64,000 nucleotides of DNA, from contig DYGY01000001.1 of NCBI GenBank assembly GCA_020724425.1, positions 89,501 through 153,500 of the forward strand. Direction: 5' to 3'. The notes under the pieces were generated by a model. It worked only from the letters and a program-made list of their open reading frames with translations, did not search any database and was not told the DNA's origin. The translations under genes were made by a program, and so were the position numbers. This DNA comes from Thermaerobacter marianensis. GTDB taxonomy: Bacteria; Bacillota; Sulfobacillia; DVGY01. Positions 1-57,070 of the stretch are shown here, one piece after another (the stretch's first letter is position 1; the number at the start of each line of letters is the position of its first letter).

Positions 1-971
1 AAAAGCTTATATTTTTCTGCATTTTTTGCTTCTGCTAAGGATTGTTCATGGACGTCTTTTTTTCTAGCAAGCTTATCTAAGTGGTTCTTTAGAATATCAT
101 CTAGTTGTTTTCTTTTTTCTTCGAGCTTGTTTGTATTCTCTTTTTCTGTATAGACAATATCTAAGAGTTTGCTTGGTGAAGAATATTCCTTTATGTCCAT
201 ACCCTTAAGCATAAAGGGAGCAAAGGCTATTTTGCCTGGTCTTAGGGATGGGGTTGTCTGGTTATTGGCGATAGCATTAATATACTCTTGTACCTTGAGA
301 ATGACTTCCTCCTGATTCTGTTCATTCCAGGGGAGATCTGGGTCATAGTTAAGACTTAAGAGAATCTCGCTGCTGCTCTGTGGGCTTAACCCCTCTATGT
401 TCTTAAATAGTGTCTCTCTCATGGTTCCTGCCTGATTTTCAGGAATTATTGTTTCTTTTAAGAGGTTAATTTTTCCTTGGGCAGGTGGTAGAATGTATTT
501 CTGGCTAGGTAAAACGGTACGGATACGACTTAAGTATGGAGGAATTCTTTTAATGGCATCAAGGATCTTTCCTTCATTATCTAAAAGGATGATGTTGCTG
601 TGTTTACCCATGAGTTCAACTACCAGTCTGTGACTGGTATTCATTCCAAGTTCATCATAACCTTGAAAATCTAGATAGCAGATTCTTTCTAGTTCATGTT
701 GAGATATGGAGTGGAGGATAGCTCCTTGGAGGTGCTTCCTTAGTACCATGGTGAACATTGGGGGAGTGGGTGGGTTAACTGACTTATGCTCTGTTAGATG
801 TATCCTAGCAAAACGAGGATGAGCAGAGATGGAGAGTCTTTTTGAACCTCTAGCCTGCAAAAGGAATACCAGTTCCAGATTATCAGGCTGGTGTATCTTC
901 TCCACCTTTGCTGGTAGGATGGAAGCTATCTCGTTAACTATGGCTTTTAGCATTAATCCATCAAAGCTCAT
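1..971 (-). CDS. rqcH: RqcH/FbpA-family (NFACT, fibronectin-binding protein A-like) ribosome quality control protein, 3'-truncated at the window edge
   Basis: Minus-strand ATG at 971 preceded by an AAGGGGGT RBS. The frame stays open to position 1. The N-terminus MSFDGLMLKAIVNEIASILPAKVEKIHQP... is typical of FbpA/RqcH. It is absent from the ORF track because no stop lies inside the window. Confidence 0.7.
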   Translation of the reverse strand, partial: MSFDGLMLKAIVNEIASILPAKVEKIHQPDNLELVFLLQARGSKRLSISAHPRFARIHLTEHKSVNPPTPPMFTMVLRKHLQGAILHSISQHELERICYLDFQGYDELGMNTSHRLVVELMGKHSNIILLDNEGKILDAIKRIPPYLSRIRTVLPSQKYILPPAQGKINLLKETIIPENQAGTMRETLFKNIEGLSPQSSSEILLSLNYDPDLPWNEQNQEEVILKVQEYINAIANNQTTPSLRPGKIAFAPFMLKGMDIKEYSSPSKLLDIVYTEKENTNKLEEKRKQLDDILKNHLDKLARKKDVHEQSLAEAKNAEKYKL

Positions 972-1100
972 GATATTACCCCCTTAATCACCTTAGTATA
1001 TCATCAGGGAGGAGAAGGGGACAAGGTGAGGAGTCTATTTGGGTTTAGGGGCTTTCTATCTGGGCAGGCTAAGTTTAAGAGATAGTTGGAGGGATTAGCC

Positions 1101-1271
1101 ATGGGTTTAAAGAAAAAGTCTATAGACAGGGATGAGATTCTGGCTTTTGCTGAGATTTATCCGGGATTGATGGCGGAACTTGAGGATAACTTGGCTCAAC
1201 TAAAGGAGATTATTAAGCAGAGTGAGGAGATTGTTAAGAAAATGGAATTGTTCTTAAACAGGAAAGAATAA
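1101..1271 (+). CDS. small hypothetical protein (56 aa), first gene of the ODH / B12-mutase-like module
   Basis: ATG at 1101 with a GGAGGG RBS 8 nt upstream. Its stop lies 35 nt before the downstream GTG start at 1307. Charged, helical-looking sequence with no recognisable family. Confidence 0.35.
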   Translation: MGLKKKSIDRDEILAFAEIYPGLMAELEDNLAQLKEIIKQSEEIVKKMELFLNRKE

Positions 1272-1306
1272 TATAATGGGAGTTGTGTTGGGAGGGGGTA
1301 TTTTTT

Positions 1307-2401
1307 GTGAGCAAGCCTCGTTTTGCTATTTTGGGGGCAGGACATGGTGGGCAAGCGATGGCTGGGTATCTGGCTTTGTTGGGTTATGAGGTAAGCCTTT
1401 TTACCAGAAGTCTTGAAACCATGATGGGTATAGAGAAGCATGGAGGTATCAAGTTAGGTGGTTCTCTAACTGGTATTGGTAGGTTGAGTCGTGTCACTGC
1501 TGACTATGGTACTGTTCTTGATAATGCTGATGTGGTTATGGTTGTGGTTCCTGCTTCTAGTCATAGGGATGTGGCTTTGAGTATAAGTCAGTATGTTCAT
1601 GAGAATCAAGTGGTTGTACTTAATCCTGGGAGAACGGGAGGAGCTTTAGAGTTTGATGCTCTGTTGAGGAGAAATGGTGTTAAGGGAGTTACTGTTGCTG
1701 AGACTCAGACGTTTTTGTTTGCTAGCAGGGTGATTGAACAGGGACAGGTAAATATCTATAGCATTAAGAATGAGGTTGGTTTTGCTGCTTTGCCTGCTTC
1801 TAGGACTGGGGAGATTCTTGGGTTTTTGGGGGATGCTTTTCCTCAGTTTAAGGAGTCGCCTAGTGTTTTGCATACCGGTTTTGATAATATTGGGGGTATT
1901 TTTCATCCAGCACCAACCTTATTGAATGCGGGTTGGATTCAGGCAACTGATGGTGCTTTCACATATTATCATCAGGGAATTACTCCGGCTGTGGCTAATG
2001 TTTTAGAGGCTTTAGATAGAGAGAGGCTTCAGGTTGCTAAAGTTTTTGATATCCAGGCCCAGAGTGCTCATGATTGGCTTGTTTGTGCTTATGGTGCCCA
2101 GGGGAATACTCTTTATGAAGCCATCCAAAATACTCTAGGCTATTCTGATATTAAGGCACCTGATACTTTAGACCATAGGTATATCTATGAGGATGTGGCT
2201 ACTTCTTTAGTACCTCTGAGTGCTCTAGCCAGGGTGGCAAATGTTGCTGTACCCGCTACTGATCTAATTATTGAACTAGCCTATTTAATGACAGGTACAG
2301 ACTATCGTTTAAGTGGCAGGTCATTAAAAACTATGGGTTTAGAGTATAGGGGTGTGGATGAAATACTTGAGTGGGTAAAGTTTGGGAAGGGAGTTGGTTG
2401 A
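1307..2401 (+). CDS. NAD(P)-dependent oxidoreductase of the octopine/nopaline (opine) dehydrogenase family
   Basis: GTG at 1307 with a GGGAGGGGG RBS. The N-terminal Rossmann motif is KPRFAILGAGHGGQAMAGYLAL. Overall length and the C-terminal helical domain are typical of the opine dehydrogenase / glycerol-3-phosphate-dehydrogenase-like fold. The stop overlaps the next start (TGAGTG). Confidence 0.6.
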   Translation: MSKPRFAILGAGHGGQAMAGYLALLGYEVSLFTRSLETMMGIEKHGGIKLGGSLTGIGRLSRVTADYGTVLDNADVVMVVVPASSHRDVALSISQYVHENQVVVLNPGRTGGALEFDALLRRNGVKGVTVAETQTFLFASRVIEQGQVNIYSIKNEVGFAALPASRTGEILGFLGDAFPQFKESPSVLHTGFDNIGGIFHPAPTLLNAGWIQATDGAFTYYHQGITPAVANVLEALDRERLQVAKVFDIQAQSAHDWLVCAYGAQGNTLYEAIQNTLGYSDIKAPDTLDHRYIYEDVATSLVPLSALARVANVAVPATDLIIELAYLMTGTDYRLSGRSLKTMGLEYRGVDEILEWVKFGKGVG

Positions 2402-4033
2402 GTGAAAACTATTGTTGCAGCAGCTGTTGGTGAGTGTGTTCATGTGGCTGGGCCTCTGAATTTTTTGAAACTGGCTGAAGAACAGGGGTATGAGACAACC
2501 TTTCTTGGTCCGGCTGTATCCATTGAGGAACTTTTAGGTGCAGTTATTGAAACTGATCCTGATATTGTGGCTGTAGGGTACAGGTTGACTCCTGAGACTG
2601 CCAGATATTTATTTATGGAGTTGGGTCAAGCCATCATGGAAACGGGTTTGGAGGATAAGGTGTTTATCTTTGGTGGTACTGATCCTGTAGCTAAAGTGGC
2701 TAAAGAAAGTGGGATTTTTGCTGAGGTTTTTGGTGGCAGTACACCAATTGAAGAGATTGTGGCTTTTTTGAAAGGTAAAGAGAGGGCCAAGGGAGAGATA
2801 AGCTATCCTGGTTCATTAAAAGGGAGAATTGAGTGGAAGGCACCGTGGCCGGTTATCAGGCATCATTTTGGTTTGCCAACACTTGAGGATACAGAGGCTG
2901 GTATCAGGAAGATTTCTGAAGCCAAGGTCTTAGATATTATTTCTTTGGGATTAGATCAGAATGCTCAGGAGGCTTTCTTCCAGCCCGAATTGGGAAAGAA
3001 GAGTCAGGATGGAGCTGGGGGGGTACCTGTACGTTCCTTTGAGGATTTTAGGAGTCTTTTTCTGGTTTCAAGGACTGGTAACTATCCTTTGATGCGAAGC
3101 TATAGTGGGACAAAGGATCTGGTTCCTTTAGCAGACGTGTTACATAGGAGTATTAATAATGCCTGGTCTGCTATTCCTCTAACCTGGTATAGTGTGCTTG
3201 ATGGTAGGGGTCCAAGGTCTGTTGCTGAGAGGGTAAGGGAGAGTCAGGAGGTTGCTAGATGGCATGGAGAAAGGGATATCCCTGTGGAGATGAATGAATC
3301 TCACCATTGGAGTCTAAGGGATGCCCATGACACTATTGCTGTTGCCATGGCGTATCTGGCAGCATATAACGCTAAGGAATCTGGTGTTAAAGAGTATATA
3401 GCTCAGTATATGTGGAATACACCTCCAGGTACCTCTTTTAGGATGGATCTAGCTAAGATGTTAGCTAAAAAAGAACTAATTGAGAGTCTTCATGATGAAG
3501 GTTTTGTAACTTACAGGCAGGTGCGGACCGGTCTTTCTAGTTATCCTGCTGATTTGGATATGGCTAAGGGGCAGTTGGCTTCCTCTACTCTTTTACAGAT
3601 GGCTTTAGAGCCTCATATTGTCCATGTGGTAAGTTTTTCTGAGGCTGATCATGCTGCAACTGCAGATGATGTCATTGAAAGCTGCAGGATTGCTGGACAG
3701 GTTATTAGAAATGCAATGCTTGGGCTACCTGATATGACAGCTGATCCTTTGGTGCAGGAAAGGAAAGAGGAGTTATTAAGGGAAGCAAAGATACTTTTAG
3801 AGGCTATTAACAGTCTTGGTCAGGATGGTCTTATTAATCCTGATGCTATCTCTAAAGCTATTGAGATTGGATTGCTAGATGCTCCTCACTTTAAAGGGAA
3901 TAGGTTTGCTAGGGGTGAACTTAAGACTAGAGAGGTTAATGGAGCCTATTATGCCATTGATGATAACGGGAAGATACTGAGGGAAGAGGAAAGAATAGAT
4001 AGGGTTTTTAAGAAGTATCTGAACCGCTCCTGA
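2402..4033 (+). CDS. fused cobalamin-binding domain (GlmS/MutS-like) + glutamate-mutase E-subunit-like barrel protein, 543 aa
   Basis: The N-terminal ~130 aa align collinearly with glutamate mutase S / methylmalonyl-CoA mutase B12 domains (KTIV..VG.C.H.AG ... AVIETDPDIV ... FGG). The canonical DxHxxG is replaced by ECVHVAG (Asp->Cys). The C-terminal ~400 aa show patchy collinear similarity to GlmE (e.g. ..AKESGVK.. and ..YPADLDMAKG.. versus GlmE ..AAEQGVK.. and ..FPQDESKAFG..). Only 2 Cys, so not a radical-SAM protein. Confidence 0.5.
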   Translation: MKTIVAAAVGECVHVAGPLNFLKLAEEQGYETTFLGPAVSIEELLGAVIETDPDIVAVGYRLTPETARYLFMELGQAIMETGLEDKVFIFGGTDPVAKVAKESGIFAEVFGGSTPIEEIVAFLKGKERAKGEISYPGSLKGRIEWKAPWPVIRHHFGLPTLEDTEAGIRKISEAKVLDIISLGLDQNAQEAFFQPELGKKSQDGAGGVPVRSFEDFRSLFLVSRTGNYPLMRSYSGTKDLVPLADVLHRSINNAWSAIPLTWYSVLDGRGPRSVAERVRESQEVARWHGERDIPVEMNESHHWSLRDAHDTIAVAMAYLAAYNAKESGVKEYIAQYMWNTPPGTSFRMDLAKMLAKKELIESLHDEGFVTYRQVRTGLSSYPADLDMAKGQLASSTLLQMALEPHIVHVVSFSEADHAATADDVIESCRIAGQVIRNAMLGLPDMTADPLVQERKEELLREAKILLEAINSLGQDGLINPDAISKAIEIGLLDAPHFKGNRFARGELKTREVNGAYYAIDDNGKILREEERIDRVFKKYLNRS

Positions 4034-4048
4034 TGGGGCGGTTTTTTC
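4022..4048 (+). terminator. rho-independent terminator closing the ODH / B12-mutase-like module
   Basis: AACCGC-loop-GCGGTT stem overlapping the stop codon, followed by TTTTTTC. Confidence 0.6.
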
Positions 4049-4106
4049 ATTCATAGAACGGTTGGTTCTGGCATATCGATTTAATGGTTTCCAAGGAGGA
4101 GATGCC

Positions 4107-6656
4107 ATGACCAACTGGTCTTTAGGTAGCTATCAGGATGTACTTAAGGAGTTAAGAACCTCTTTAGAGGGCTTATCTACCAAGGATAGTCAAAAGAGGT
4201 TAGAGGAGTTTGGCTATAACCGGTTGCCGGAAGGGCAAAAGACCAACTGGGTTCTAGTTTTTTTAGGTCAGTTTAAGGAATTAATGGTCCTAATCCTGCT
4301 AGCGGCAACAGTGGTCTCTTTCCTTTTAGGGGAAAGGGTTGATGCCATAACCATCGCAGTCATTGTTCTGCTTAATGCCATTCTAGGATTTGTGCAGGAA
4401 TTCAGGGCAGAACAGGCTTTAGAGGCATTAAAGAGTTATGCAGCTCCTATAGCTCGAGTTAGAAGAGATGGTAGGGTAGTTAAGATAGATGCAGAGGAGT
4501 TAGTACCAGGAGATATCTATTTGCTTGAAGCGGGTGATAGGGTGCCTGCAGATGGCAGGATTATTGAAGCCCATGAATGTGAGATTGATGAAGCGGCTTT
4601 AACCGGGGAATCTGTTCCGGTTAATAAGCGGGAGGAGACTTTAAGGGAAGCAAAGCCTTTAGCAGATACCGCCAACATGGTGTATCAGGGGACCATGGTT
4701 ACTAGGGGCAGGGCGATAGCGGTTTTGGTGGCAACAGGGGCAAAAACTGAGGTTGGCAAGATAGCTCATCTTTTGCAGGAGGCAACGGTAGGGATGACAC
4801 CTCTGCAGAAACGGTTGCATAAGCTTAGTATTGTGCTTGTAGCTGTCTGTCTTAGTGTTTCTGCTTTTGTGGCTTTAGCAGGGGTTATCAGGGGTGAGTC
4901 TATCTACAAGATGTTTCTAGCAGGTGTAAGTATGGCTGTAGCTGCTATCCCTGAAGGTCTACCAGCTATTGTAACTATTGCTTTGGCTATTGGGGTACAA
5001 AGAATGATAAAGATTAATGTCATTGTCAGAAGATTACCCACGGTAGAGACCTTAGGTTGTGCTACAGTTATCTGTTCAGATAAGACGGGAACTCTGACAG
5101 AGGGAAGGATGGCTCTAAGGGAGATAAGGTTTCAAAATAGGATATTGACTATAGATGAGATTGATAGTGATTTGGCAGAGAGTATTCTTCTGAGTACGGC
5201 TTTAGTTGAAGAGGGAGACCCCACTGAGGTTGCTCTGGTAAGGGGAGCTAAAGAAAAGGGGGTTTCAATAGAGGGTGTATTAAAAAGATGGGAGAAGCTT
5301 GGGGAGATTCCCTTTTCTTCTGAGCGAAAAATGATGACTGTAGCCTACAGGGATAGAAGGACAGGGGAAATCTGGGTCTTTAGCAAAGGGGCTATTGATG
5401 TCATCCTAGATAAAAGCCAAATGGTTGATAAGGTGAGGTTACACAAGGATAACGAAGAAATGGCGGGACTTTCTTTAAGAGTATTAGCTCTGGGTAAAAA
5501 GAAACTTACCTCTTTAGAGGAAGAGTGGGAAGAGGGTTTAGAGTTTCTGGCTTTGATGGGTATTTCTGACCCCCCCAGGAAAGAAGTGAAGCTCTCATTA
5601 GCAAAGAGCAGGAAAGCTGGTATAAAAACCATTATGGTTACAGGAGATCATCCCGCTACTGCTAAATCCATTGGGGAGCAGATTAATCTTTTGCCTCCTG
5701 GAGGGATTGTTCTAACAGGTGCTGAATTAGATAATCTTAGTGATCTGCAGTTAAAGAATCTTCTACCTAGGGTGTATGTACTAGCTCGAGTTACTCCTTC
5801 ACATAAGCTCAGAATTGTCAGGGTGTTAAAAGAGAGTGGTCACGTGGTGGCTATGACCGGTGATGGGGTTAATGATGCTCCTGCTGTTAAGGAAGCGGAT
5901 ATTGGTATAGCTATGGGTAGGAGTGGTACAGATGTAACTAAAGAGGCTGCCTCATTAGTTCTTTTAGAGGATAACTTTTCAGCTATTGTTGAGGCTATTG
6001 AACAGGGTAGAGCCATTTATGATAATATTCGTAAGTTTTTGCGCTATTTGCTTTCCTGTAATACTGGGGAGATTCTGGTTATGCTGGTGGGTACTCTGTT
6101 GGGTTTGCCTTTACCTTTGCTGCCAATTCATATTCTGCTTGTTAATCTAGTTACTGATGGTCTGCCTGCTCTGGCCTTAGGGGTGGAACCTCCCGATTCA
6201 GAAGTGATGACAAGGAAGCCAAGGGATCCTAAAGAGGGTATTTTAGCAGGGGGTCTAGGTATCAGGATAATTATGAAGGGTATAGCTATTGCTTTAGCAG
6301 CTATCGGGGTTTTTGTCTATCTTTTAAGTACTGGCAGTGATGTGGATAGGGCTAGGACAGCTGTTCTGGCATCATTGGTGCTTTCTCAGCTTGTGCATGC
6401 TTTTGAGGTGAGAACAGAGAACAGGTCATTATGGGAGCTAAATCTCTGGGGAAATCGCTATCTACCCTTAGCTGTTGGTTCCTCGTTATTGATTCTTTTG
6501 GGTGTTATTTATCTCCCCTTTGGAGCTATCGCTTTTCAGACTGTACCATTGGGATTATATGAGTGGTCAGTTGTGGTCCTGTTTACAGCTTTAAGTGCTG
6601 GTGTGGTAGATATTTTTAGTGTTAATCTAAGGAGAGTAGCTTTTGGGAGTCTGTGA
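4107..6656 (+). CDS. P-type cation-transporting ATPase, Ca2+-ATPase (PMCA/SERCA-like, YloB-type)
   Basis: AAGGAGG RBS before ATG 4107. DKTGTLT phosphorylation motif, TGDGVNDAPA hinge motif, ~10 TM segments. Confidence 0.8.
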   Translation: MTNWSLGSYQDVLKELRTSLEGLSTKDSQKRLEEFGYNRLPEGQKTNWVLVFLGQFKELMVLILLAATVVSFLLGERVDAITIAVIVLLNAILGFVQEFRAEQALEALKSYAAPIARVRRDGRVVKIDAEELVPGDIYLLEAGDRVPADGRIIEAHECEIDEAALTGESVPVNKREETLREAKPLADTANMVYQGTMVTRGRAIAVLVATGAKTEVGKIAHLLQEATVGMTPLQKRLHKLSIVLVAVCLSVSAFVALAGVIRGESIYKMFLAGVSMAVAAIPEGLPAIVTIALAIGVQRMIKINVIVRRLPTVETLGCATVICSDKTGTLTEGRMALREIRFQNRILTIDEIDSDLAESILLSTALVEEGDPTEVALVRGAKEKGVSIEGVLKRWEKLGEIPFSSERKMMTVAYRDRRTGEIWVFSKGAIDVILDKSQMVDKVRLHKDNEEMAGLSLRVLALGKKKLTSLEEEWEEGLEFLALMGISDPPRKEVKLSLAKSRKAGIKTIMVTGDHPATAKSIGEQINLLPPGGIVLTGAELDNLSDLQLKNLLPRVYVLARVTPSHKLRIVRVLKESGHVVAMTGDGVNDAPAVKEADIGIAMGRSGTDVTKEAASLVLLEDNFSAIVEAIEQGRAIYDNIRKFLRYLLSCNTGEILVMLVGTLLGLPLPLLPIHILLVNLVTDGLPALALGVEPPDSEVMTRKPRDPKEGILAGGLGIRIIMKGIAIALAAIGVFVYLLSTGSDVDRARTAVLASLVLSQLVHAFEVRTENRSLWELNLWGNRYLPLAVGSSLLILLGVIYLPFGAIAFQTVPLGLYEWSVVVLFTALSAGVVDIFSVNLRRVAFGSL

Positions 6657-6694
6657 TATAATATAGGGAAATATTTCTTGGAGGGAGCAGATGG

Positions 6695-7519
6695 ATGGAG
6701 CTTAGATTCACGAAACTACAGGGATTAGGTAATGACTATCTCTTTTTTGATACTATCAGTGAAGATATGAATGAGTTGGATTGGGCCGCTCTTTCTAGGG
6801 ATATCTCTAACAGGCATTTTGGAGTTGGTTCTGATGGAATCATCCTGATTCTACCTTCAGACATGGCTGATTTTCAGATGCGGATTTTTAATGCGGATGG
6901 TAGTGAGGCGATGATGTGTGGTAATGGGATTAGGGGTTTTGGTAAGTATGTCTATGATCATGGTCTAACTAATAAAGAAGAGTTGGATATTGAAACAAGG
7001 GCAGGTATTAAAAAGCTTAAGCTTAATACTGAGGCAGGAAAGGTAGTTTCTGCGATAGTTGATATGGGAAAACCAAAGCTCAAGGATTCTGTTACCTTAG
7101 AGGCTTTAGGTGTTTCTTTTTCTTTTCAGGAGGTCTCCATGGGTAATCCCCATATAGTGGCCTTTGTCAAAGATCCGTATTTGATTCCTTTGGAGGAGTA
7201 TGGGCCTATTTTTGAGAAGGCTTATCCTGATGGCACTAATGTGGAGTTTGTAGCTGTTGATAATTATGGAGAGATAACTATGAGGGTGTGGGAGAGAGGT
7301 TCTGGCATTACCATGGCCTGTGGTACGGGAGCCTGTGCTTCCATGGTAGCAGCATTCAGTCAAGGAGTAGTTGATAGTGTGGTTGTAGTCAAACAACCTG
7401 GTGGAGATTTAATGATTAGCTGGAAACCCGGTGAGTCTTGTTTGATGGAAGGACCAGCAGTTGAGGTATTTACCGGGGTATACTATTGGCAGGAGGGGAA
7501 GATTCTTGGAAAGAGCTAA
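6695..7519 (+). CDS. dapF: diaminopimelate epimerase
   Basis: N-terminus MELRFTKLQGLGNDYLFFD and the two catalytic Cys regions (MCGNGIR, ACGTGACA). Confidence 0.85.
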   Translation: MELRFTKLQGLGNDYLFFDTISEDMNELDWAALSRDISNRHFGVGSDGIILILPSDMADFQMRIFNADGSEAMMCGNGIRGFGKYVYDHGLTNKEELDIETRAGIKKLKLNTEAGKVVSAIVDMGKPKLKDSVTLEALGVSFSFQEVSMGNPHIVAFVKDPYLIPLEEYGPIFEKAYPDGTNVEFVAVDNYGEITMRVWERGSGITMACGTGACASMVAAFSQGVVDSVVVVKQPGGDLMISWKPGESCLMEGPAVEVFTGVYYWQEGKILGKS

Positions 7520-8666
7520 ACGAATTAATGCGGTACCACCCTATCTTTTTGCTGAGATTGATAAGAAAAAGGAAGCGGCGATTGAGAGGGGGGTGGATGT
7601 AATCAGTCTGGGTATTGGTGATCCAGATCAACCCACCCCGGATCATGTGGTAGAAAGGTTGATAGAGGAGGCTAGGAAGTCTTCTAATCATCAGTATCCT
7701 AGTTATGTTGGTCATAGGGAGTTTCGTAAAGCAGTTAGTCAGTATTATTTTAACAGGCATGGTGTTGAAGTTGATCCAGGGGATGAAGCTATCGCTCTAA
7801 TTGGCTCGAAAGAGGGTTTAGCTCATATGATCTGGGCTTATGTGGAAGAAGGGGATTATGTTTTGGTACCTGATCCTGGTTATCCGGTTTATGGCATTCA
7901 TACAAGCCTTGCCGGGGGAAAGGTCTTTGATATGCCTCTTTTAGCTGAAAATGGCTATTTACCTGATTTTTCAGCTATTCCTGAGGAGATAGCCAAAAAG
8001 GCTAAGATTATGTTCCTTAACTATCCGAATAATCCGACTGCCGGTGTGGCTGATCTTAGTTTTTTTGAGGAAGCGGTTGCTTATGGGAAGAAGTATGACA
8101 TTCTGATTTGCCATGATGCAGCTTATACAGACATTACCTTTGATGGTTATGTGGCTCCAAGTATTCTTGAGGTTAATGGTGCTAAGGATATTGCTATTGA
8201 ATTTGGTTCTCTATCTAAACCGTATAATATGACGGGTTGGCGTATTGGTTATGCTGTTGGTGGTAAAGAATATATTGATGCTTTGGGAATAATTAAGACC
8301 AATACGGATTCCGGTCAGTTTACCGCTATTCAAAAAGCTGGTATTGAAGCCTTGCTGAATACCCCTAAGGAGTTTAGGGATAGTCTTAATAGTATGTATC
8401 AGAGGAGAAGGGATCTTGTGATTGGAAGCTTAAAGGAGATTGGTATTGAGATACCACCACCAAAGGGTTCCTTCTATATCTGGGCTCATGTACCAAAGGG
8501 GTATGGTTCAGCTGAGTTTGTTTCTTTGGTATTAGAGAAGACTGGTGTCGTCCTTACTCCTGGCTCTGCTTATGGGAAACAGGGTGAAGGATATTTCAGA
8601 ATCAGTTTAAGTGTTGCTGATGATCGTTTAGAGGAAGCCATGAAAAGGTTAAAGGACCTATTTTAG
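7506..8666 (+). CDS. dapL: LL-diaminopimelate aminotransferase (class I aminotransferase)
   Basis: TTG start 7 nt after AGGAGGGG, overlapping the dapF stop. Motifs AVPPYLFAEIDKK and LGIGDPDQPTP are typical of DapL. Adjacent to dapF. Confidence 0.75.
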   Translation: MERAKRINAVPPYLFAEIDKKKEAAIERGVDVISLGIGDPDQPTPDHVVERLIEEARKSSNHQYPSYVGHREFRKAVSQYYFNRHGVEVDPGDEAIALIGSKEGLAHMIWAYVEEGDYVLVPDPGYPVYGIHTSLAGGKVFDMPLLAENGYLPDFSAIPEEIAKKAKIMFLNYPNNPTAGVADLSFFEEAVAYGKKYDILICHDAAYTDITFDGYVAPSILEVNGAKDIAIEFGSLSKPYNMTGWRIGYAVGGKEYIDALGIIKTNTDSGQFTAIQKAGIEALLNTPKEFRDSLNSMYQRRRDLVIGSLKEIGIEIPPPKGSFYIWAHVPKGYGSAEFVSLVLEKTGVVLTPGSAYGKQGEGYFRISLSVADDRLEEAMKRLKDLF

Positions 8667-8705
8667 GCATAGTAGTTTTTGAGGTACAAGCATGGAGGGA
8701 TCTAG

Positions 8706-9104
8706 ATGGAGCTTTTTGAGGCCTTTACGGAAATAGCTAAAAAAGATCTAGAGGCGGCAAATTTATTAAAGGATAACGGTTTTGTTCCTCAGGCTATTTT
8801 CTTTGCTCAGCAGGGAGCTGAGAAGTCTGCTAAGGCCTTTCTTTACAAGAAGGGTCTTGGGCCTATTAAGAGCCACTATTTGCCCTCTATTTTCAAAAGG
8901 AATTTTCCTGATGAGCAGGCATTGAAGGATATCGTGGAGAATCTTGATTTTTTAGATAATTTCGTTAATGATACTCGTTATCCCCTTGGGAATAATCAGG
9001 GTTATCAAAGTCCTGCAGATATCTATACTATAGAGGATGCTAAGAACGCCATTAACAGAGCAGTACGAGTTAAAGAGGATTTGGAGAGATTATATGGGGA
9101 ATAG
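8706..9104 (+). CDS. HEPN-domain protein (PF05168-like), no partner nucleotidyltransferase
   Basis: AEKSAKAFLYKKGLGPIKSHYLP plus a downstream TRYP motif match the HEPN helical signature. 132 aa. GGAGGGA RBS. Confidence 0.55.
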   Translation: MELFEAFTEIAKKDLEAANLLKDNGFVPQAIFFAQQGAEKSAKAFLYKKGLGPIKSHYLPSIFKRNFPDEQALKDIVENLDFLDNFVNDTRYPLGNNQGYQSPADIYTIEDAKNAINRAVRVKEDLERLYGE

Positions 9105-9117
9105 GGGCTGATTATTC

Positions 9118-10002
9118 TTGGTTTATAGTATGACTGGTTATGGTAGAGCTGAAGAGAATGGAGACAACTATTCAGTGAGAGTGGAACTGAAATCAGTGAA
9201 CCATCGTTTTGCTGATGTGTCAGTGAAGATGCCAAAGGAGTATTATTCTCTAGAAGAGCGTATCCGTAAGAATATTGTTAGCAGGGTTTCAAGGGGTAGG
9301 GTGGATGCTTATCTTTCTGTAGAGAGAACCGGGCAGGGAGAGAAGAATCTCCGTGTTGACAGGGATTTGGCCTTCGCCTATTATAGTTCCTTAGAAGGAT
9401 TGAAGGCTGAGCTGAATTTGGGTGGCCAGGTTGATATTAATCAGTTGGCCATGATGCCTGAGATATTTTCTTTAGAGGAAGAACAAGCAGATATTGAAGA
9501 GGTCTGGGTGCTAATGGAGAAGGCTCTCTTAGGAGCGTTAGAGAGTCTTTTATCTATGCGTAGACAGGAAGGTGAAACCCTTGTTAAGGATCTCCTTAAG
9601 AGGGCAGAGCTTATCAGGGAGTATACTCAAGAGATAGAAGAGCGGGCTCCTCTGGTAGTTGAAGAGTATCGGTTTAAATTAAGGGAACGACTGAATGAGC
9701 TTTTGAGGGATTCTGAAGCAACTGTTGATGAGGTGAGATTGGCTAGTGAGATAGCTATCTATGCGGATCGCTCTAGCATCACTGAAGAGATAGTGCGGCT
9801 TTATAGTCATCTTGATTTTTTAGCAGAGACACTTGCTGAGGATGGTCCAGTGGGCAGGAAGCTTGAATTTATCCTGCAAGAGATTAACAGGGAAGCAAAC
9901 ACAATTGGGTCTAAAGCCCAGGATGCTTCTATGGGACAGAAGGTAGTTAGTATTAAGAGTGAGCTTGAAAAGATTAGAGAACAGTCGCAGAATATTGAGT
10001 AG
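9118..10002 (+). CDS. yicC: YicC/YloC-family stress-induced endoribonuclease
   Basis: N-terminus [11 protein letters not shown] and a C-terminal DUF1732-like region. Position upstream of remA-gmk as in B. subtilis yloC. Confidence 0.8.
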
Positions 10003-10024
10003 CAGGTGGGAGAGGGGAGTTAGT

Positions 10025-10291
10025 ATGGATATCAAGTTGGTCAATATTGGTTTTGGGAATATTGTTGCTGCAAACAGAATCATAGCTATTGTTAGCCCAG
10101 AATCTGCACCTATTAAAAGAACTATTAGTGAGGCTAGGGAATCAGGCCTTTTGATTGACGCTACTTATGGGAGAAGAACAAGAGCCGTAATTGTTACTGA
10201 TAGCGGTCATATCATTCTCTCAGCAGTGCAACCGGAAACAGTTGCTCATCGTGTGGGGGGCAAGGAGGTTGTGGAGAAGGTGGTGGAGTAA
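10025..10291 (+). CDS. remA: RemA/YlzA (DUF370) biofilm matrix regulator
   Basis: [32 protein letters not shown] is near-identical in pattern to B. subtilis RemA. GGGGAG RBS. Lies between yicC and gmk. Confidence 0.8.
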
Positions 10292-10905
10292 TGAGAGAGG
10301 GTGTTCTAACCATTATCTCTGCACCTTCTGGAGCAGGAAAAGGTACAATTAGGGCTTTATTGCAAAAACGGATGCCCAAGCTTCGTTATGGAGTCTCGGT
10401 CACAACAAGACAGCCGCGTGAGGGAGAAGTTGATGGCATCAACTACTACTTCATGGATGAAGAGGTATTTAAGAACGGTCTTAGTGAAGGTAAGTTTGTG
10501 GAACATGCAGAGGTATATGGAAACTATTACGCTACTCCTAGGCAACCTATGGAGGACTGGCTTAAGGAAGGTATAGACGTTATTATTGAAAAGGATGTTC
10601 AGGGGGCTCTAGCTCTTAAAAATGTCTATCCTGAAGCAGTATATGTATTCATTCTACCTCCTTCTTTAGAAGAGTTGCGTCAGCGTATTACTAGACGTGG
10701 TACGGAAACTGAGCAGGCTAGATCTCAGAGACTAAAGAGTGCTGAGATTGAGTTAAACTACATAAATCATTATGACTACGTTATTGTAAATGATGATTTA
10801 GACAAAGCGGTATCAGACTTACAGGCTATCATTGTCAGTGAGAGTTTAAAAATTAAGAGACAGAAAGCAACAGTGGAGAAGTTAATTGGGAAAAGTCTTA
10901 TGTGA
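10291..10905 (+). CDS. gmk: guanylate kinase
   Basis: P-loop SAPSGAGKGT and a Gmk-length ORF. ATGA overlap with the remA stop. Confidence 0.9.
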   Translation: MREGVLTIISAPSGAGKGTIRALLQKRMPKLRYGVSVTTRQPREGEVDGINYYFMDEEVFKNGLSEGKFVEHAEVYGNYYATPRQPMEDWLKEGIDVIIEKDVQGALALKNVYPEAVYVFILPPSLEELRQRITRRGTETEQARSQRLKSAEIELNYINHYDYVIVNDDLDKAVSDLQAIIVSESLKIKRQKATVEKLIGKSLM

Positions 10906-10914
10906 GGTGAAGGA

Positions 10915-11124
10915 TTGGTGTATACAGATACAACAGACAGAGCTTTAGAAAAGGTTGATGCCAGATATTCTCTAGTAATTCTGGTAGCGAAAAGAGCAAG
11001 GCAATTGGTTGAAGATGCACTACCTCTAGTTGAAAGTCAATCAAACAAGCCAGTTACAGTAGCGATGGAGGAACTAGCTGAAGGAACATTTAGTTACAAG
11101 CGAGTGAAAACTGGGATCAAATAG
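10915..11124 (+). CDS. rpoZ: DNA-directed RNA polymerase subunit omega
   Basis: 69 aa with RALEKVDARYSLVILVAKRARQL, an RpoZ signature. Follows gmk. Confidence 0.85.
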   Translation: MVYTDTTDRALEKVDARYSLVILVAKRARQLVEDALPLVESQSNKPVTVAMEELAEGTFSYKRVKTGIK

Positions 11125-11136
11125 GGGGAGAAGGTA

Positions 11137-12324
11137 ATGCTAGCGGGGAAAACTATCCTGTTGGGGGTAAGTGGTGGTATAGCGGCATATAAGAGTGTGG
11201 AGTTGGTACGACTCTTGAAAAAGGAGGGTGCCGATGTCTATGTTATTATGACTGAGCATGCTACGAAATTTGTCACACCTTTAACTTTTGAGAGTCTTTC
11301 AGGCAATCCGGTTTTCACTGATGTTGTAGGAGAGTACAAGAAGTATCCTGTTGAACACATAGTGTTATCTGAAAAAGCTGATCTAATGGTAGTGGCTCCG
11401 GCAACTGCTAATGTCATTGCCAAGTTTGCTAATGGTATTGCTGATGACTATTTAAGTACGACCAATCTAGCCTTAACTTGTCCAAGACTAATTTGTCCGG
11501 CTATGAATCATAACATGTATGCTCACCCGGCAACTCAGGCTAATCTTAAGAGACTTGACAGTTATGATAACTATCAGTTAATGGAGCCTAAAGAAGGGCG
11601 TTTGGCTACAGGTATTGTTGGTAAAGGTAGAATGCCTGAAGCTATAGAGATTTTTAATGAGATTAAGTATCTTTTAAGTCCTAAGGATATGCTTGGCAAA
11701 ACTGTACTTATTACTGCAGGTCCAACTAGGGAGCATTATGACCCTATTCGGTTTCTTTCTAATCCATCCACAGGGAAGATGGGTTATGCTATTGCTAGAA
11801 AGGCAGCAGAGAGAGGAGCTAGGGTCATTCTTGTTTCCGGTCCTGTCAGTATTGAACTACCCCCTAAAGTTAAGGTAGTGTCTGTAAATACAGCCATAGA
11901 GATGAGAGAGGCTGCCATTAAGTATTTTGATGAAACAGATATTTTCATAGGTACTGCTGCTGTAGCTGATTACAGACCTAAAAACAGGGCAGCAGAGAAA
12001 ATAAAGAAGGGTGCAGACACCCTTATTCTTGATTTAGAGAAGAACCCAGATATAATTGCTGAACTTGGTCAGAACAAAGATCAGCGGATTGTGGTTGGTT
12101 TTGCAGCAGAGACTAATAACGGTTTTTCCTATGCTTTAGAGAAGATAAAGAAGAAGAATCTTGACTTTATTGTCCTTAATGATGTGGCGCAAAAGGGAGC
12201 AGGTTTTGGGGTGGATACCAACATTGTTAAGTTTGTTTTCCCTGATGGAACTCATGAAGAATTCCCGTTAATGCTCAAGGAAGATGTGGCCACAAAGATT
12301 CTTGATCAAATTATGAAGCTATAG
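11137..12324 (+). CDS. coaBC: bifunctional phosphopantothenoylcysteine decarboxylase / phosphopantothenate-cysteine ligase
   Basis: N-terminal flavoprotein domain (GVSGGIAAYK) plus a C-terminal CoaB domain. Conserved position before priA. Confidence 0.9.
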   Translation: MLAGKTILLGVSGGIAAYKSVELVRLLKKEGADVYVIMTEHATKFVTPLTFESLSGNPVFTDVVGEYKKYPVEHIVLSEKADLMVVAPATANVIAKFANGIADDYLSTTNLALTCPRLICPAMNHNMYAHPATQANLKRLDSYDNYQLMEPKEGRLATGIVGKGRMPEAIEIFNEIKYLLSPKDMLGKTVLITAGPTREHYDPIRFLSNPSTGKMGYAIARKAAERGARVILVSGPVSIELPPKVKVVSVNTAIEMREAAIKYFDETDIFIGTAAVADYRPKNRAAEKIKKGADTLILDLEKNPDIIAELGQNKDQRIVVGFAAETNNGFSYALEKIKKKNLDFIVLNDVAQKGAGFGVDTNIVKFVFPDGTHEEFPLMLKEDVATKILDQIMKL

Positions 12325-12345
12325 AATTTTCCTTATATATTCGGG

Positions 12346-12372
12346 AAGGACACCTTAAAGGGTGTCTTTTCG
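12346..12372 (+). terminator. intrinsic terminator after coaBC
   Basis: AAGGACACC-ttaaag-GGTGTCTTT followed by TCG, a T-rich tail. Confidence 0.5.
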
Positions 12373-12373
12373 A

Positions 12374-12402
12374 TTGTAGGGGATAGCTGATAATGGTAAA
12401 AT
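12374..12402 (+). promoter_or_regulatory. sigma-A-type promoter for priA (TTGTAG-17-TAAAAT)
   Basis: -35 TTGTAG, 17-nt spacer, -10 TAAAAT, located ~30 nt upstream of the priA GTG. Confidence 0.45.
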
Positions 12403-12432
12403 ACAGTATATATGTTAAAGGGGAGAGAATGT

Positions 12433-14598
12433 GTGAAGCCATATGCTCAGGTTTTGGTCGATATTGCCAGCAAAGATATAGACCATAGCTTTGATTATCT
12501 AATCCCTGATTGGTTACAGGGAAGGGTAGCTTGTGGGCAGAGGGTAGAGGTACCCTTTGGTAACAGAAAAGCCATTGGTTATGTTCTCTCTTTAAGTGAT
12601 GAGTCGGAAGTGGCTGAGTTAAAGGAGATTGCTGGAGTGGTTGATGAGGAACCACTTTTGAATGCTGAGCTTTTGGCTTTAGCTTCCTGGATAGCTACTG
12701 AGTATCTTTCTCCCTTGAGTGTGGTCTATAGAACCATGCTTCCTGCTCCAGTGCGGAAAGGAAGAGAGAAAAAAAAGGTTTTGGCTTTGAGTTCTGCTGG
12801 TGTTGAAGTCAGAGTAACTGAAAAACAGAGAATGGTTTTGGAATTCTTAAATGGCAGGACTGCTGAGTCCATGGCTGCATTGGCTAGAGACTGTGGGGTA
12901 TCTCAAGGGGTTGTAAGAAGCCTCATTGATAAGGGACTGGTAAGTTTTGTTGAAGTAGGGGAAGATATTGATGATATTGATGTTTTTGAAGGGCCAACAC
13001 TTACCTCTGAGCAGGTAAATGTGATACAATCAATGAAAAATCATGGGGATAGGGTTTATCTGTTACATGGAGTAACAGGGAGTGGTAAGACAGAGATCTA
13101 TCTTCAGAGTATTGAGGAAGTTAGAAAACAGGGCAAGACCGCTATTGTTCTGGTTCCTGAGATTGCCTTAACACCTCAGATTACCAAGCGATTTAGGGAG
13201 CGTTTCGGTAGCAGGGTAGCTCTGCTGCATAGTGGGCTTAACGATGAACAGAGATATAATGAATGGATGAGGATTTATCAGGGCAAGGTGGATGTGGTGG
13301 TAGGAGCCCGTTCAGCTGTTTTTGCACCCTTAAGTAACTTGGGGTTGATAGTTTTAGATGAGGAACATGAGAATACTTACAGGCAAGAGGAGTCGCCAAG
13401 GTATCATGCCCGAGAGGTAGCAATTAAAAGAGCTAGTCTAGCAGGTGCAAAATGTATTCTTGGGAGTGCAACTCCTAGTCTTGAATCATATTATCGGGCT
13501 GAAAAAAGGGAATTTGTTCTTTTAGAACTACCTGAAAGAATTGGTCAGGGAATGGCTAAGGTTTCAGTGGTGGATATGAAAGCAGAGTCTAAACGGGGAA
13601 ATCGGTCAATGCTGAGTCAGACTCTCAGGGAAGGTATTGCCAGAAGACTTGAAAGAAAGGAACAGGTAATGCTGTTCCTAAATCGTCGAGGGCATTCAAC
13701 CTTTGTACTCTGCAGGGGTTGTGGGAAGGCGAGAAGGTGCCCTAACTGTGATGTATCCTTAACATATCATCAGCAGAAAGAAAGGCTTCTATGCCACTAT
13801 TGTGACTATTCAGAGAAGGTACCTGTGCAGTGTCCAGGTTGTGAGAGTACCCAGATTGGGTTTTTTGGTATTGGTACCCAGAAGGTAGAGGAAATAGTTA
13901 AGAAGGCTTATCCGCAAGCAAGGGTCAGGCGCATGGATGTGGATACTACCAGGCGTAAGGGTGCTCATGAGGAGATCTATACAGCCTTTGCTAAAGGTGA
14001 AATTGATATATTGATTGGTACACAGATGATTGCTAAGGGTTGGGATATTGGTAGGGTGACCCTTGTCGGAGTTATTTCTGCTGATACATCTTTGCATCTA
14101 CCGGATTTTAGAGCGGGAGAGAGAACCTTCTCTTTGTTAACTCAGGTGGCTGGTAGAGCAGGTAGGGCTGATTTGGAAGGTGAAGTAGTTGTTCAGACCT
14201 TTAGCCCTGATAATTATGCTATTAGAGCTGCATTGAAGCAGGACTATAGAGAGTTTTATGAAGAAGAGATACTAGCTAGAAAAGAGCTTGGTTATCCACC
14301 CTATGGTTCTCTAGCTAGGATTGTGGTTTCTGATCCGGATCAAAAAGTGGTTATAGCTGAATTGAATGGGTTAGCTGAGATATTGAGAAAGGAAATAGAT
14401 ATCTTAGGACCCCAGCCAGCACCTCTACCAAGGTTAAGAGGGAGAAGCAGGTGGCAGATAACCATTAAAGAGATTGGTGAGGAAAACAAGACTAAGGCTG
14501 TTCTTAAGAGGCTTATGCCCAATGGATGGTTAGAGGGAAAAAGATTGAAACCGACAACTAGAGTTGTGGTTGATACTGATCCATATAACATGCTGTAG
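12433..14598 (+). CDS. priA: primosomal protein N' (replication restart helicase)
   Basis: GTG start after GGGGAGAGAA. Walker [13 protein letters not shown] box, and a C-terminal Cys4 zinc fingers (CRGCG...CPNC...CHYC...CPGC). Confidence 0.9.
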
Positions 14599-53395: not shown

Positions 53396-53424
53396 TTGAC
53401 AGTATCTCTAGTGATGGTTAAAAT
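53396..53424 (+). promoter_or_regulatory. sigma-A promoter TTGACA-17-TAAAAT for the tetR-ubiD-ubiA-ubiX-ABC operon
   Basis: Consensus -35, good -10, 30 nt upstream of the tetR ATG. Confidence 0.6.
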
Positions 53425-53437
53425 GAATATGTATTCA
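53424..53437 (+). promoter_or_regulatory. 14-bp perfect palindrome TGAATATGTATTCA overlapping -10/+1 (candidate TetR operator)
   Basis: Inverted repeat TGAATA-tg-TATTCA at a classic autoregulatory operator position. Confidence 0.45.
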
Positions 53438-53453
53438 GTTTTGAGGTGGGTAG

Positions 53454-54101
53454 ATGGCATATCAACGGACAGAGCGTGTTGTTGAAAGGTTGCAGAGCAA
53501 TGAACAGGCTCTATTAACTGCTGCTCAAGAGCTTTTTGCCAAACAGGGGTATCATGGTACAACAATTAAGCAGATTGCTAACAGAGCTGGTTTTGCTGTA
53601 GGTACTTTCTATTTGTATTTTGAAAACAAGGAAGAGCTCTTTATTCGGCTCTTGAATGAACTTTTTAACAGACTGATTGAAGAGGTTAGAGAGAGTCGGC
53701 AGGGTAAGGTTGACCCTATTGCCAAGTTAACTGCTTCCATGGATAAAGCTGTAGAGATTTTTGCACAAGAAGAAGAACTATCAAGAATTCTCCTTTTACA
53801 AAGCACAGGCGCTAATGCTCGTTTCTCTGAAAGGCTAGCAGAACTTCATGGAGCTCTAGCTATTTTGGTTAAGGAGGATCTCTCTGAGGCATTAGATATG
53901 GGTATCATTGATATGGATAAAGAGTCTCTTTCGACAGCTGCCAAGGCTCTTGTGGGTACTTTCTATGAGAATATCCTTGGTTGGTTAAGGGGTAGAGAGC
54001 CGGAATCATTGATAGATATCCTGCCAATATTGACTCGATATAACTTGAGAGGTCTAGGAATATCGAACCCAGATAAATACTTATCTTTAGGAGGAAATTA
54101 A
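53454..54101 (+). CDS. TetR/AcrR-family transcriptional regulator
   Basis: HTH GYHGTTIKQIANRAGFAVGTFYLYFENKEEL. Stop overlaps the ubiD start. Confidence 0.85.
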   Translation: MAYQRTERVVERLQSNEQALLTAAQELFAKQGYHGTTIKQIANRAGFAVGTFYLYFENKEELFIRLLNELFNRLIEEVRESRQGKVDPIAKLTASMDKAVEIFAQEEELSRILLLQSTGANARFSERLAELHGALAILVKEDLSEALDMGIIDMDKESLSTAAKALVGTFYENILGWLRGREPESLIDILPILTRYNLRGLGISNPDKYLSLGGN

Positions 54102-55555: not shown

Positions 55556-55569
55556 CTGGGGGTTTATAA

Positions 55570-56442: not shown

Positions 56443-56457
56443 GAAAGGGGTTTTCTC

Positions 56458-57069: not shown

Positions 57070-57070
57070 T

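Follow-up and report, generated by a model that had tools for sequence, protein, structure and literature searches.

Organization of the locus

The window analyzed here, i.e. the whole 64-kb stretch of DNA, contains three consecutive co-directional open reading frames (ORFs), which end in an intrinsic terminator.

1101-1271, plus strand: small ORF of 56 amino acids (aa), predicted helical, with GGAGGG before ATG 1101 (longest form from TTG 1086)
1307-2401, plus strand: gene 2, 364 aa from GTG 1307, preceded by GGGAGGGGG (longest ORF from TTG 1283)
2402-4033, plus strand: gene 3, 543 aa, with its ribosome-binding site GGGAAGGGAG within gene 2
4021-4050, plus strand: intrinsic terminator, with stem GAACCGCTCC/GGGGCGGTTT, loop TGAT and a T-run

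The ORF coordinates of the initial annotation were reproduced (1086/1101-1271, 1283/1307-2401, and 2402-4033), as was the 35-nt gap between the small ORF and gene 2 (1272-1306), and the GTG 1307 start of gene 2 agrees with the public gene call. The TGAGTG stop/start overlap proposed for genes 2 and 3 has to be corrected, because TGA (2399-2401) and GTG (2402-2404) abut and share no base. The predicted hairpin and U-tract were recovered. The hairpin (4021-4044) has a 10-bp stem with six G-C pairs and a loop of four, is followed by T6, and has a folding energy of -18.7 kcal/mol (z = -3.9 versus shuffles); the stop codon of gene 3 sits in its loop. The description of the module as terminator-bounded therefore applies to its 3' side, but not to its 5' side, which is a divergent intergenic region beside a minus-strand NFACT gene. 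A search for an upstream riboswitch or leader RNA identified no Rfam family at gathering score in the window, in locus L001 or in locus L003, and there are neither B12 transport genes nor a B12 riboswitch within the 64 kb. Horizontal acquisition of the module was considered and is unsupported (GC 43% versus 42%, synteny with Halothermothrix).

The small ORF, which is also annotated as a gene on public contigs, has no match in Pfam or NCBIfam. Among 5.8 billion proteins searched, its sole match is an identical copy, and none of 88 related loci carries a homologue. This rules it out as a conserved third component, contrary to its initial inclusion in the module, and it is probably a species-specific orphan.

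Gene 2 encodes an opine dehydrogenase-type protein

As initially proposed, gene 2 is of the opine/octopine dehydrogenase type. It has both an N-terminal GxGxxG Rossmann domain and an Octopine_DH helical domain, with a match to PF02317 at 7.5e-46 (156 bits versus a Pfam cut-off of 30).

1334-1351, plus strand: GAGHGG dinucleotide-binding motif
1904-2194, plus strand: catalytic residues His200 (1904-1906), Arg291 (2177-2179) and Asp296 (2192-2194)

Gene 2 matches over its full length (1.7e-84) the N-(1-D-carboxyethyl)-L-norvaline dehydrogenase (CENDH) of Arthrobacter sp. 1C (PDB 1BG6), and alignment to this structure shows that His200, Arg291 and Asp296 are equivalent to CENDH His202, Arg292 and Asp297. 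These His, Arg and Asp residues are kept in 73, 73 and 72, respectively, of 73 partner enzymes. The two proteins differ at the end of strand β2, where NADH-specific CENDH has an Asp, whereas the strand ends in T-R-S in gene 2 (1403-1411) and in N/T-R/K-T/S in the 73 partner enzymes. Since T-R-S replaces Asp, the usual Rossmann rule predicts a preference for NADPH, and the gene 2 product is probably NADPH-specific. Unlike CENDH, the gene 2 family pairs obligately, in genomes, with a B12 enzyme.

Gene 3 combines a putative B12-binding domain with a TIM barrel

Gene 3 was divided into the following parts.

2402-2770, plus strand: B12-binding Rossmann-like domain (residues 1-123), without a preceding four-helix cap
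2435-2452, plus strand: CVHVAG motif (Cys12-x-His14-x-x-Gly17), a variant of the DxHxxG lower-ligand motif
2771-2842, plus strand: inter-domain linker (residues 124-147), the sole low-confidence stretch of the predicted model (pLDDT < 50 at residues 127-132)
2843-3721, plus strand: eight-stranded TIM barrel of the adenosylcobalamin-isomerase type (residues 148-440)
2855-2872, plus strand: invariant IRHHFG in the barrel
3641-3643, plus strand: Glu414 in the barrel, which aligns with GlmE Glu330, a ribose-binding residue
3722-4030, plus strand: C-terminal helical/β-hairpin region (residues 441-543)

The N-terminal domain had been read as cobalamin-binding, and it does have the expected Rossmann-like α/β fold, but its PF02310 score (29.9 bits) falls slightly below the Pfam cut-off of 32.1; many gene 3 homologues carry a precomputed PF02310 match. 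Its profile matches include corrinoid proteins (4jgi at 8.6e-7, MttC at 4.3e-5, MetH at ∼0.01), which, together with "methionine synthase" as source name of homologues, would fit a corrinoid-dependent methyltransferase in which a corrinoid domain is fused to a substrate-activating TIM barrel. Gene 3, however, has neither the four-helix cap (B12-binding_2) nor the methyltransferase-type barrel of MetH or MtaC-type systems, and this reading is very unlikely.

The Asp of DxHxxG normally hydrogen-bonds the lower-ligand His. Its replacement by Cys in gene 3, as originally noticed, is borne out by the alignment of CVHVAG with DEHSVG of OraE. Cys12, His14 and Gly17 are invariant across 54 homologues. 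The first motif residue is Cys in all 120 close homologues and Asp in a sister branch of 600-636-aa proteins; among 79 genome loci, 77 have Cys and two have Asp. At the sequence level, Cys12 thus marks the clade as a whole, and Asp occurs naturally in the same column. That Asp is found in these two loci as well as in the sister branch speaks for an equivalent function of Cys12. The SxL motif is also non-canonical (G/S-Y-R-L).

Sequence searches of the PDB, with either the single sequence or a 54-sequence profile, matched the B12 domain only, which made a fold comparison necessary for the barrel. The best structural matches of the two domains in the predicted model are GlmE and GlmS. Residues 274-519 score above the Pfam cut-off for Met_asp_mut_E (PF06368; 33.8 versus 26.6 bits), so that the C-terminal region does have a significant match to the glutamate mutase E family. 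Local low-stringency hhalign with Escherichia coli GlmE gave a collinear, low-confidence alignment. The two patches originally singled out as GlmE-like, ESGVK and YPADLDMAKG, are exactly those that hhalign pairs with EQGVK and FPEDESKAF of GlmE. Residues 441-543 are collinear with the C-terminal part of GlmE (GLLDAPH versus GVLDVPF). The N-terminal barrel half aligns to GlmE at low confidence, and statements on substrate residues are therefore tentative.

These similarities raise the question whether gene 3 is a fused form of true glutamate mutase (EC 5.4.99.1), forming 3-methylaspartate, as the Met_asp_mut_E score and the two top structural matches would suggest. Several findings render this very unlikely. 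The NCBIfam GlmS models score 22.5 and 15.5 bits versus cut-offs of 110 and 135.8, there is no GlmE equivalog match, and identity to GlmE is 15%. Of the glutamate-binding residues of GlmE (Arg66, Arg100, Arg149, Glu171 and Tyr181, Clostridium cochlearium numbering, from the literature), Arg100, Glu171 and Tyr181 are not conserved, and the columns of Arg66 and Arg149 hold His155 and Tyr234, with family arginines two residues earlier, as judged from low-confidence hhalign. Methylaspartase and GlmL are absent from the window, methylaspartase is absent from about 90 loci, and the conserved partner is another enzyme. "Glutamate-mutase-like" thus applies to fold and predicted type of chemistry but, tentatively, not to substrate, the glutamate-binding residues of GlmE not being kept.

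Gene 3 differs in architecture from known B12 enzymes

The GlmE-type TIM fold of the gene 3 barrel, scored in the GlmE Pfam family, is shared with C. cochlearium GlmS/GlmE (PDB 1CB7/1CCW/1I9C). The latter consists of two subunits, whereas gene 3 is one chain with an N-terminal B12 domain and Cys in place of the motif Asp, in a locus that has a conserved opine-dehydrogenase partner instead of methylaspartase. The GlmE family has one other CoA-free carbon-skeleton mutase, 2-methyleneglutarate mutase (Mgm) of Eubacterium barkeri. Mgm is a single polypeptide with barrel and B12 domain and a canonical DxHxxG, functions in nicotinate fermentation with methylitaconate isomerase, and is not known to have an opine-dehydrogenase partner. 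By description, both are single-chain, but the B12 domain is C-terminal in Mgm and N-terminal in gene 3.

D-Ornithine 4,5-aminomutase (OraSE) and lysine 5,6-aminomutase (KamDE) (PDB 3KOW, 1XRS, 8T0V) offer a precedent for another reading, since in amino-acid fermentation OraSE/Ord and KamDE/Kdd are aminomutases followed by a dehydrogenase. A PLP- and adenosylcobalamin-dependent aminomutase encoded by gene 3 would shift an amino group, and the dehydrogenase would then oxidize the new amine. This is unlikely, considering that the PLP-lysine loop of OraE (DIKHGG) is a gap in gene 3 and that residues 1-130 contain no invariant Lys in 54 homologues; the conserved lysines K352 and K389 are in the barrel. 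In addition, the domain order is reversed, there is no S/β subunit, and the partner comes from a different dehydrogenase family.

The gene pair is widely conserved in anaerobes

Hundreds of anaerobes retain the gene 2-gene 3 pair, with both gene orders found and both bacteria and archaea represented. The gene 3 family extends from Bacillota to Asgard-type archaea at 52-60% identity, and one scan identified it in at least 556 species. Homologues bear generic database names, none of which places them in a characterized pathway, and their source name "methionine synthase" is misleading. As first reported for the immediate neighbourhood, no GlmL or methylaspartase was found, and this extends to the whole window, in which GlmL, methylaspartase, GlmE-level and PduO-type adenosyltransferase searches gave no match. 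Across about 90 loci, methylaspartase was never found, but the absence of GlmL is not universal: this reactivase occurs in a minority of relatives, including as reactivase fusions.

The non-canonical motif and the absence of reactivase and adenosyltransferase nearby could be taken to mean that gene 3 has lost its activity and is a relic, or that it binds B12 as a sensor or storage protein without catalyzing a reaction. That is extremely unlikely for a protein in which eighty-odd residues, largely from the barrel, are invariant in 54 homologues, with 52-60% identity between bacteria and archaea, and with an operon partner whose catalytic residues are invariant.

The pair occurs in varied surroundings (glycan clusters, aconitase-like genes, housekeeping regions), and an amide-forming neighbour is lacking in ∼64% of loci, so that a single common end product is not established. 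In other genomes, AsnB-like, NadE-like and ATP-grasp enzymes are found near the pair, in some cases in glycan clusters, and one relative adjoins LeuCD-like aconitase genes. The Crp/Fnr regulator found downstream of the pair in Halanaerobiales is absent here. Genes for 2-oxoacid:ferredoxin oxidoreductase upstream of the pair in eight Tissierellia-type loci were judged to be lineage synteny (gaps of 0.5-1.5 kb).

The family was predicted in 2009

It is rare for a new adenosylcobalamin isomerase reaction to be found and, to our knowledge, carbon-skeleton mutases described since the 1990s are nearly all acyl-CoA mutases. Here, a family that matches a radical B12 enzyme in fold, motif and reactivase associations has a fixed dehydrogenase partner. 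Solving it would yield a new B12 reaction, account for some of the cobamide that anaerobic communities require, reveal the effect of Cys for a conserved Asp on His-on cobalamin, and correct two misleading database names ("methionine synthase" and "NADP transhydrogenase subunit alpha").

The initial annotation could match the locus to no described operon. [quoted passage not shown] That family, found in 11 genomes of Clostridia, Lactobacillales, Chloroflexi and Thermotogae, has a distant N-terminal B12-binding domain and a TIM-barrel-like part, always adjoins pfam02317, and in several genomes has D-Ala-D-Ala ligase and asparagine synthase close by (PMC2667541). By this description (B12 domain, barrel body and pfam02317 neighbour), gene 3 is a member. 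The GlmE fold assignment, Cys variant, reactivase fusions, archaeal members, inverted gene order and glycan-cluster contexts go beyond the 2009 paper (PMC2667541). That paper was the only one found on opine dehydrogenase with cobalamin or on CxHxxG, with no experiment then or since, in a search of the openly accessible literature. The family is thus unsolved rather than unseen, having been flagged in 2009 with no reaction assigned 17 years on.

Proposed function of the module

The core of the original proposal, a single-chain GlmE-like B12 mutase working with an NAD(P)H-dependent opine-type dehydrogenase, is supported by the fold, the conservation of the His-on motif, the conserved pairing, and the reactivase fusions in relatives. 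Sequence, predicted fold, motif conservation and gene linkage are observed, and from them we infer cofactor binding, radical chemistry, NADPH use and substrate class. Genes 2 and 3 likely form a two-enzyme metabolic module, in which gene 3 provides a radical isomerase that is single-chain, depends on adenosylcobalamin and most likely acts on a C5-dicarboxylate.

Within the GlmE/aminomutase/acyl-CoA-mutase superfamily, gene 3 would represent a family of its own. Its N-terminal domain would bind the cofactor base-off/His-on via His14, with Cys12 standing in for the His-bonding Asp, and its TIM barrel would cover the upper face of the cofactor and hold the 5'-deoxyadenosyl radical, Glu414 corresponding to GlmE Glu330. 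The predicted substrate is small, CoA-free, carboxylate-bearing and other than free glutamate. Most likely, a C5-dicarboxylate skeleton would be converted to a branched isomer by 1,2-rearrangement, with candidate substrates derived from glutamate, 2-oxoglutarate or 2-hydroxyglutarate, and possibly N-carboxyalkylated. Gene 2, which appears translationally coupled to gene 3, would use its His/Arg/Asp residues to reduce (or oxidize) a carboxylate-adjacent C=N or C=O, thereby making the mutase substrate or consuming its product. Elsewhere, the product may then be amidated or ligated by the AsnB-like, NadE-like and ATP-grasp enzymes, sometimes within glycan clusters.

A more specific possibility, which we consider rather doubtful, is that gene 3 is a third kind of CoA-independent adenosylcobalamin carbon-skeleton mutase beside glutamate mutase and 2-methyleneglutarate mutase, with an opine-type-dehydrogenase-linked substrate and with a lower ligand that is thiol-tuned (Cys-His) and found in anaerobes alone. 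Its substrate may be, for example, an N-(carboxyalkyl)glutamate, 2-oxoglutarate or 2-hydroxyglutarate. If so, many anaerobes would make a branched dicarboxylate block that is amidated or ligated into envelope glycans, peptides or solutes. In one sub-variant, gene 2 may reduce 2-oxoglutarate to 2-hydroxyglutarate, which gene 3 may rearrange to 3-methylmalate, leading to 2-oxobutyrate and isoleucine synthesis.

Gene layout at the locus

An ORF scan recovered the three co-directional ORFs of the initial annotation, with a 35-nt spacing between the small ORF and gene 2. These features, and the terminator at their 3' end, are as follows.

1086/1101-1271, + strand, small ORF
1283/1307-2401, + strand, gene 2, opine-dehydrogenase-family (ODH) oxidoreductase
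2402-4033, + strand, gene 3, 543-aa "mutase" (fused B12-binding domain and GlmE-like TIM barrel)
4021-4044, terminator stem of 10 bp, then T6, with the gene 3 stop codon inside the loop

Ribosome-binding sites suggest that the small ORF starts at ATG 1101 and gene 2 at GTG 1307, and the same starts are chosen in public gene calls on identical contigs. What had been read as a TGAGTG stop/start overlap is a contiguous stop and start, with TGA 2399-2401 followed at once by the GTG of gene 3 (2402-2404), but the codons abut and do not overlap; GGGAAGGGAG is found shortly 5' of this start codon. The description of the module as terminator-bounded holds for its 3' side (-18.7 kcal/mol, z = -3.9), whereas its 5' flank has no terminator and is formed by a divergent intergenic region beside a minus-strand NFACT gene.

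The small ORF, directly 5' of the module, has a good ribosome-binding site, is called as a gene, and would encode a helical protein of 56 aa. Searched against 5.8 billion proteins, it matched only identical copies on contigs of the same organism. The three-gene module first proposed is thus conserved as the pair of genes 2 and 3, but the small ORF has a counterpart in none of the related loci, and its putative protein lies outside the conserved module.

Conservation of the mutase-dehydrogenase pair

With each species represented by one genome, a scan found the gene 3 family at no fewer than 556 loci. The best 80 of these, with 52-60% identity to gene 3, belong to bacteria (Bacillota, Chloroflexota, Bacteroidota/Ignavibacteria, Actinomycetota, Aminicenantes, Poribacteria, Sumerlaeota, and Cloacimonadota) and to seven archaeal bins (Thor-, Prometh-, Theion-, and Bathyarchaeia, and Methanomicrobia). 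An ODH homologue is present in the same cluster at 72 of these 80 loci, and four of the other eight are contig ends. It usually lies directly upstream of the mutase, with an overlap of 0-4 nt. In eight Chloroflexota/Anaerolineae loci (L059, L066, L067, L075, and L085-L088) the mutase comes first, the reverse of the order in all other lineages. ODH genes also accompany distant relatives of gene 3, namely a MutL fusion, an ATP-grasp fusion, an archaeal 632-residue form, and the DxHxxG branch of sister proteins. Because the pairing is kept in both gene orders and in both domains, it points to two genes that function together, not to synteny by descent. Variants in other genomes (L, loci; P, proteins homologous to gene 3) include the following.

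L005:8001-11801, mutase-GlmL/MutL reactivase fusion (P0274, P0275, P0279)
L062:829-2442 and L072:2149-3819, Asp variants of Cloacimonadota/Bathyarchaeia (DIHVAG, DVHIAG)
L098:1174-3765, mutase fused to a RimK/GSH-S-type ATP-grasp domain (P0249), then a Peptidase_C26/GATase gene
L099:163-2361, mutase with a weak M15-peptidase-like tail (P0255), then LeuCD-like aconitase subunits
L093:146-12802 and L095:336-6185, DxHxxG branch with an Octopine_DH gene in glycan-synthesis clusters

This widespread family and its ODH partner were pointed out as early as 2009 (Zhang, Rodionov, Gelfand, and Gladyshev, BMC Genomics 10:78, PMC2667541); the family predicted there, for which its authors asked for experiments, is the gene 3 family. 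No later characterization was found in literature outside subscription journals, and NCBIfam holds no family-specific model for gene 3, in line with the initial view that the genes match no described operon. Its interest for B12 enzymology is moderate to high, lowered by this earlier flagging and because sequence cannot assign the substrate.

Gene 2 belongs to the opine dehydrogenase family

The opine-dehydrogenase architecture ascribed to gene 2 was borne out by matches to Octopine_DH in Pfam (7.5e-46) and, over the full length, to the structure of N-(1-D-carboxyethyl)-L-norvaline dehydrogenase (CENDH, PDB 1BG6; 1.7e-84). The equivalents of CENDH His202, Arg292, and Asp297 are all kept in the alignment and are invariant or nearly so among 73 partners encoded in other genomes. 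The gene 2 clade ends strand beta2 with N/T-R/K-S/T in place of the Asp of NADH-specific CENDH, from which, by the usual Rossmann rule, gene 2 is predicted to use NADPH. In public records, such partners are misleadingly named 'NADP transhydrogenase subunit alpha'.

Gene 3 resembles glutamate mutase but probably differs at the glutamate site

As initially proposed, the C-terminal region of gene 3 matches the GlmE family (Pfam Met_asp_mut_E, residues 274-519, 33.8 bits against a cut-off of 26.6). In a profile alignment, residues 275-527 are collinear with E. coli GlmE 184-431, the two patches noticed at first pair with GlmE EQGVK and FPEDESKAF, and invariant Glu414 falls on GlmE Glu330, which according to the literature binds the ribose. 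The B12-binding model (PF02310) was also matched, but at 29.9 bits, just short of its 32.1 cut-off. The top NCBIfam match is the OraE B12 domain, NCBIfam GlmS models score far under their cut-offs, and PDB sequence searches detect the B12 domain only; in fold comparison, no solved structure is nearer than GlmE. In the N-terminal half of the barrel, aligned at low confidence, GlmE Arg100, Glu171, and Tyr181 are not kept, and His155 and Tyr234 take the places of Arg66 and Arg149, two residues after the family arginines Arg153 and Arg232. By these comparisons, gene 3 has the GlmE fold and probably GlmE-type chemistry, but apparently not the glutamate site, which lies in this low-confidence half.

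The Cys reported at the Asp position of DxHxxG is a constant feature: Cys12, His14, and Gly17 are invariant in a 54-sequence alignment, and CxHxxG occurs in 120/120 close homologues. Among genome loci, the position is Cys in 77 of 79 and Asp in two, of which the Bathyarchaeia locus also carries a stand-alone GlmL gene. The sister branch of 600-636 residues has canonical DPHTxG or DAHTLG. The change from Asp to Cys is therefore a clade trait, and this natural exchange supports a predicted equivalent role of the two residues beside the cobalt-ligating histidine. The string CxHxxG was not found in searchable literature.

Database names would make gene 3 homologues 'methionine synthase', against which stand the fold ranking of gene 3, its missing cap domain, and the reactivases of its relatives; another misleading public name is 'methylmalonyl-CoA mutase cobalamin-binding subunit'. 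P0274, P0275, and P0279 (39-41% identity) carry a fused C-terminal GlmL/MutL domain (2.4e-82), and four core-family loci (L024, L042, L051, and L072) have an in-operon stand-alone homologue of E. coli GlmL (1e-56 to 1e-75). Such reactivases are known only for adenosylcobalamin enzymes. The window itself contains no reactivase or methylaspartase, as first noted, and no PduO-type adenosyltransferase. The gene 3 family is probably a distinct variant within the adenosylcobalamin isomerases, and the initial observation is confirmed and its interpretation supported.

Neighboring genes and proposed reaction

The bare pair seen in the window is the majority arrangement. At 17 distinct loci the mutase is followed by an AsnB-like gene (19 BLAST rows, of which three represent a single place), ~10 loci include an ATP-grasp ligase, Ddl-like or other, in the operon, and a NadE-like amidotransferase occurs at one; a Dehalococcoidia locus runs DegT aminotransferase-GT4-ODH-mutase-ATP-grasp. 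In about one-third of genomes, the product would thus pass to a carboxylate-activating, amide-forming enzyme. The DxHxxG branch lies in glycan clusters with a priming transferase, glycosyltransferases, FdtA, DegT, and a MurJ-type flippase; L093 and L095 hold a priming transferase, GT1, ATP-grasp, SDR, aldo-keto reductase, DegT, and FdtA, or Alg14/GT28 and a MurJ-type flippase.

From sequence, predicted fold, motif conservation, and gene linkage, all directly observed, we infer the following steps. Gene 3 would bind adenosylcobalamin base-off/His-on through His14; substrate in the barrel would set off Co-C homolysis, and the adenosyl radical would take a hydrogen, leading to a 1,2-shift in a CoA-free, carboxylate-bearing substrate other than free glutamate. 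Gene 2, with NADPH and its His/Arg/Asp site, would reduce a C=N or C=O beside a carboxylate, or oxidize in reverse, and may either make the mutase substrate or trap its product. One candidate scheme runs from glutamate and a 2-oxo acid to an opine that the mutase rearranges, where the N-substituted amine would account for the missing Glu171; others are conversion of 2-oxoglutarate or 2-hydroxyglutarate to 3-methyl-oxaloacetate or 3-methylmalate, and an amino-group shift. As analogies, pyrrolysine synthesis by PylB, PylC, and PylD may resemble the mutase, ATP-grasp, and dehydrogenase logic found here, and NAGGN and D-Asp cross-bridge synthesis may resemble the AsnB-like and ATP-grasp pair.

Eight Tissierellia-type loci (L014, L025, L035, L048, L053, L054, L064, and L065) have, ~1-4.5 kb upstream of the pair, a ParA/CbiA-like gene and three 2-oxoacid:ferredoxin oxidoreductase subunits. 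Given gaps of 0.5-1.5 kb, these upstream genes are possibly synteny only; a 2-oxo acid link is conceivable.

Setting in the window

The window covers housekeeping genes of an uncultured spore-forming Bacillota member (pyr operon, priA, fmt, fatty-acid synthesis, smc, ftsY, ffh, SASP, and GPR), and the module shares the G+C content of its surroundings. An Rfam scan of the whole 64-kb window gave no family at gathering score and no cobalamin riboswitch near gene 3. Positions 1-14000 are syntenic with the Halothermothrix locus L003 (NFACT gene, dehydrogenase-mutase pair, P-type ATPase, RemA, guanylate kinase, RpoZ); in Halothermothrix and Anoxybacter, the pair is additionally preceded by an EF-G paralogue and followed by a Crp/Fnr regulator, neither of which is present in the window. 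The genes downstream of the module have no evident link to it.

4107-6656, P-type cation ATPase
6695-7519, DAP epimerase
7506-8666, class I/II aminotransferase, possibly LL-DAP type, overlapping the DAP epimerase
8706-9104, HEPN-domain protein

Farther on (~53400-57100), a small Nitro_FeMo-Co-family protein precedes a TetR regulator, UbiD-family decarboxylase, UbiA prenyltransferase, and UbiX-like flavoprotein in a row.
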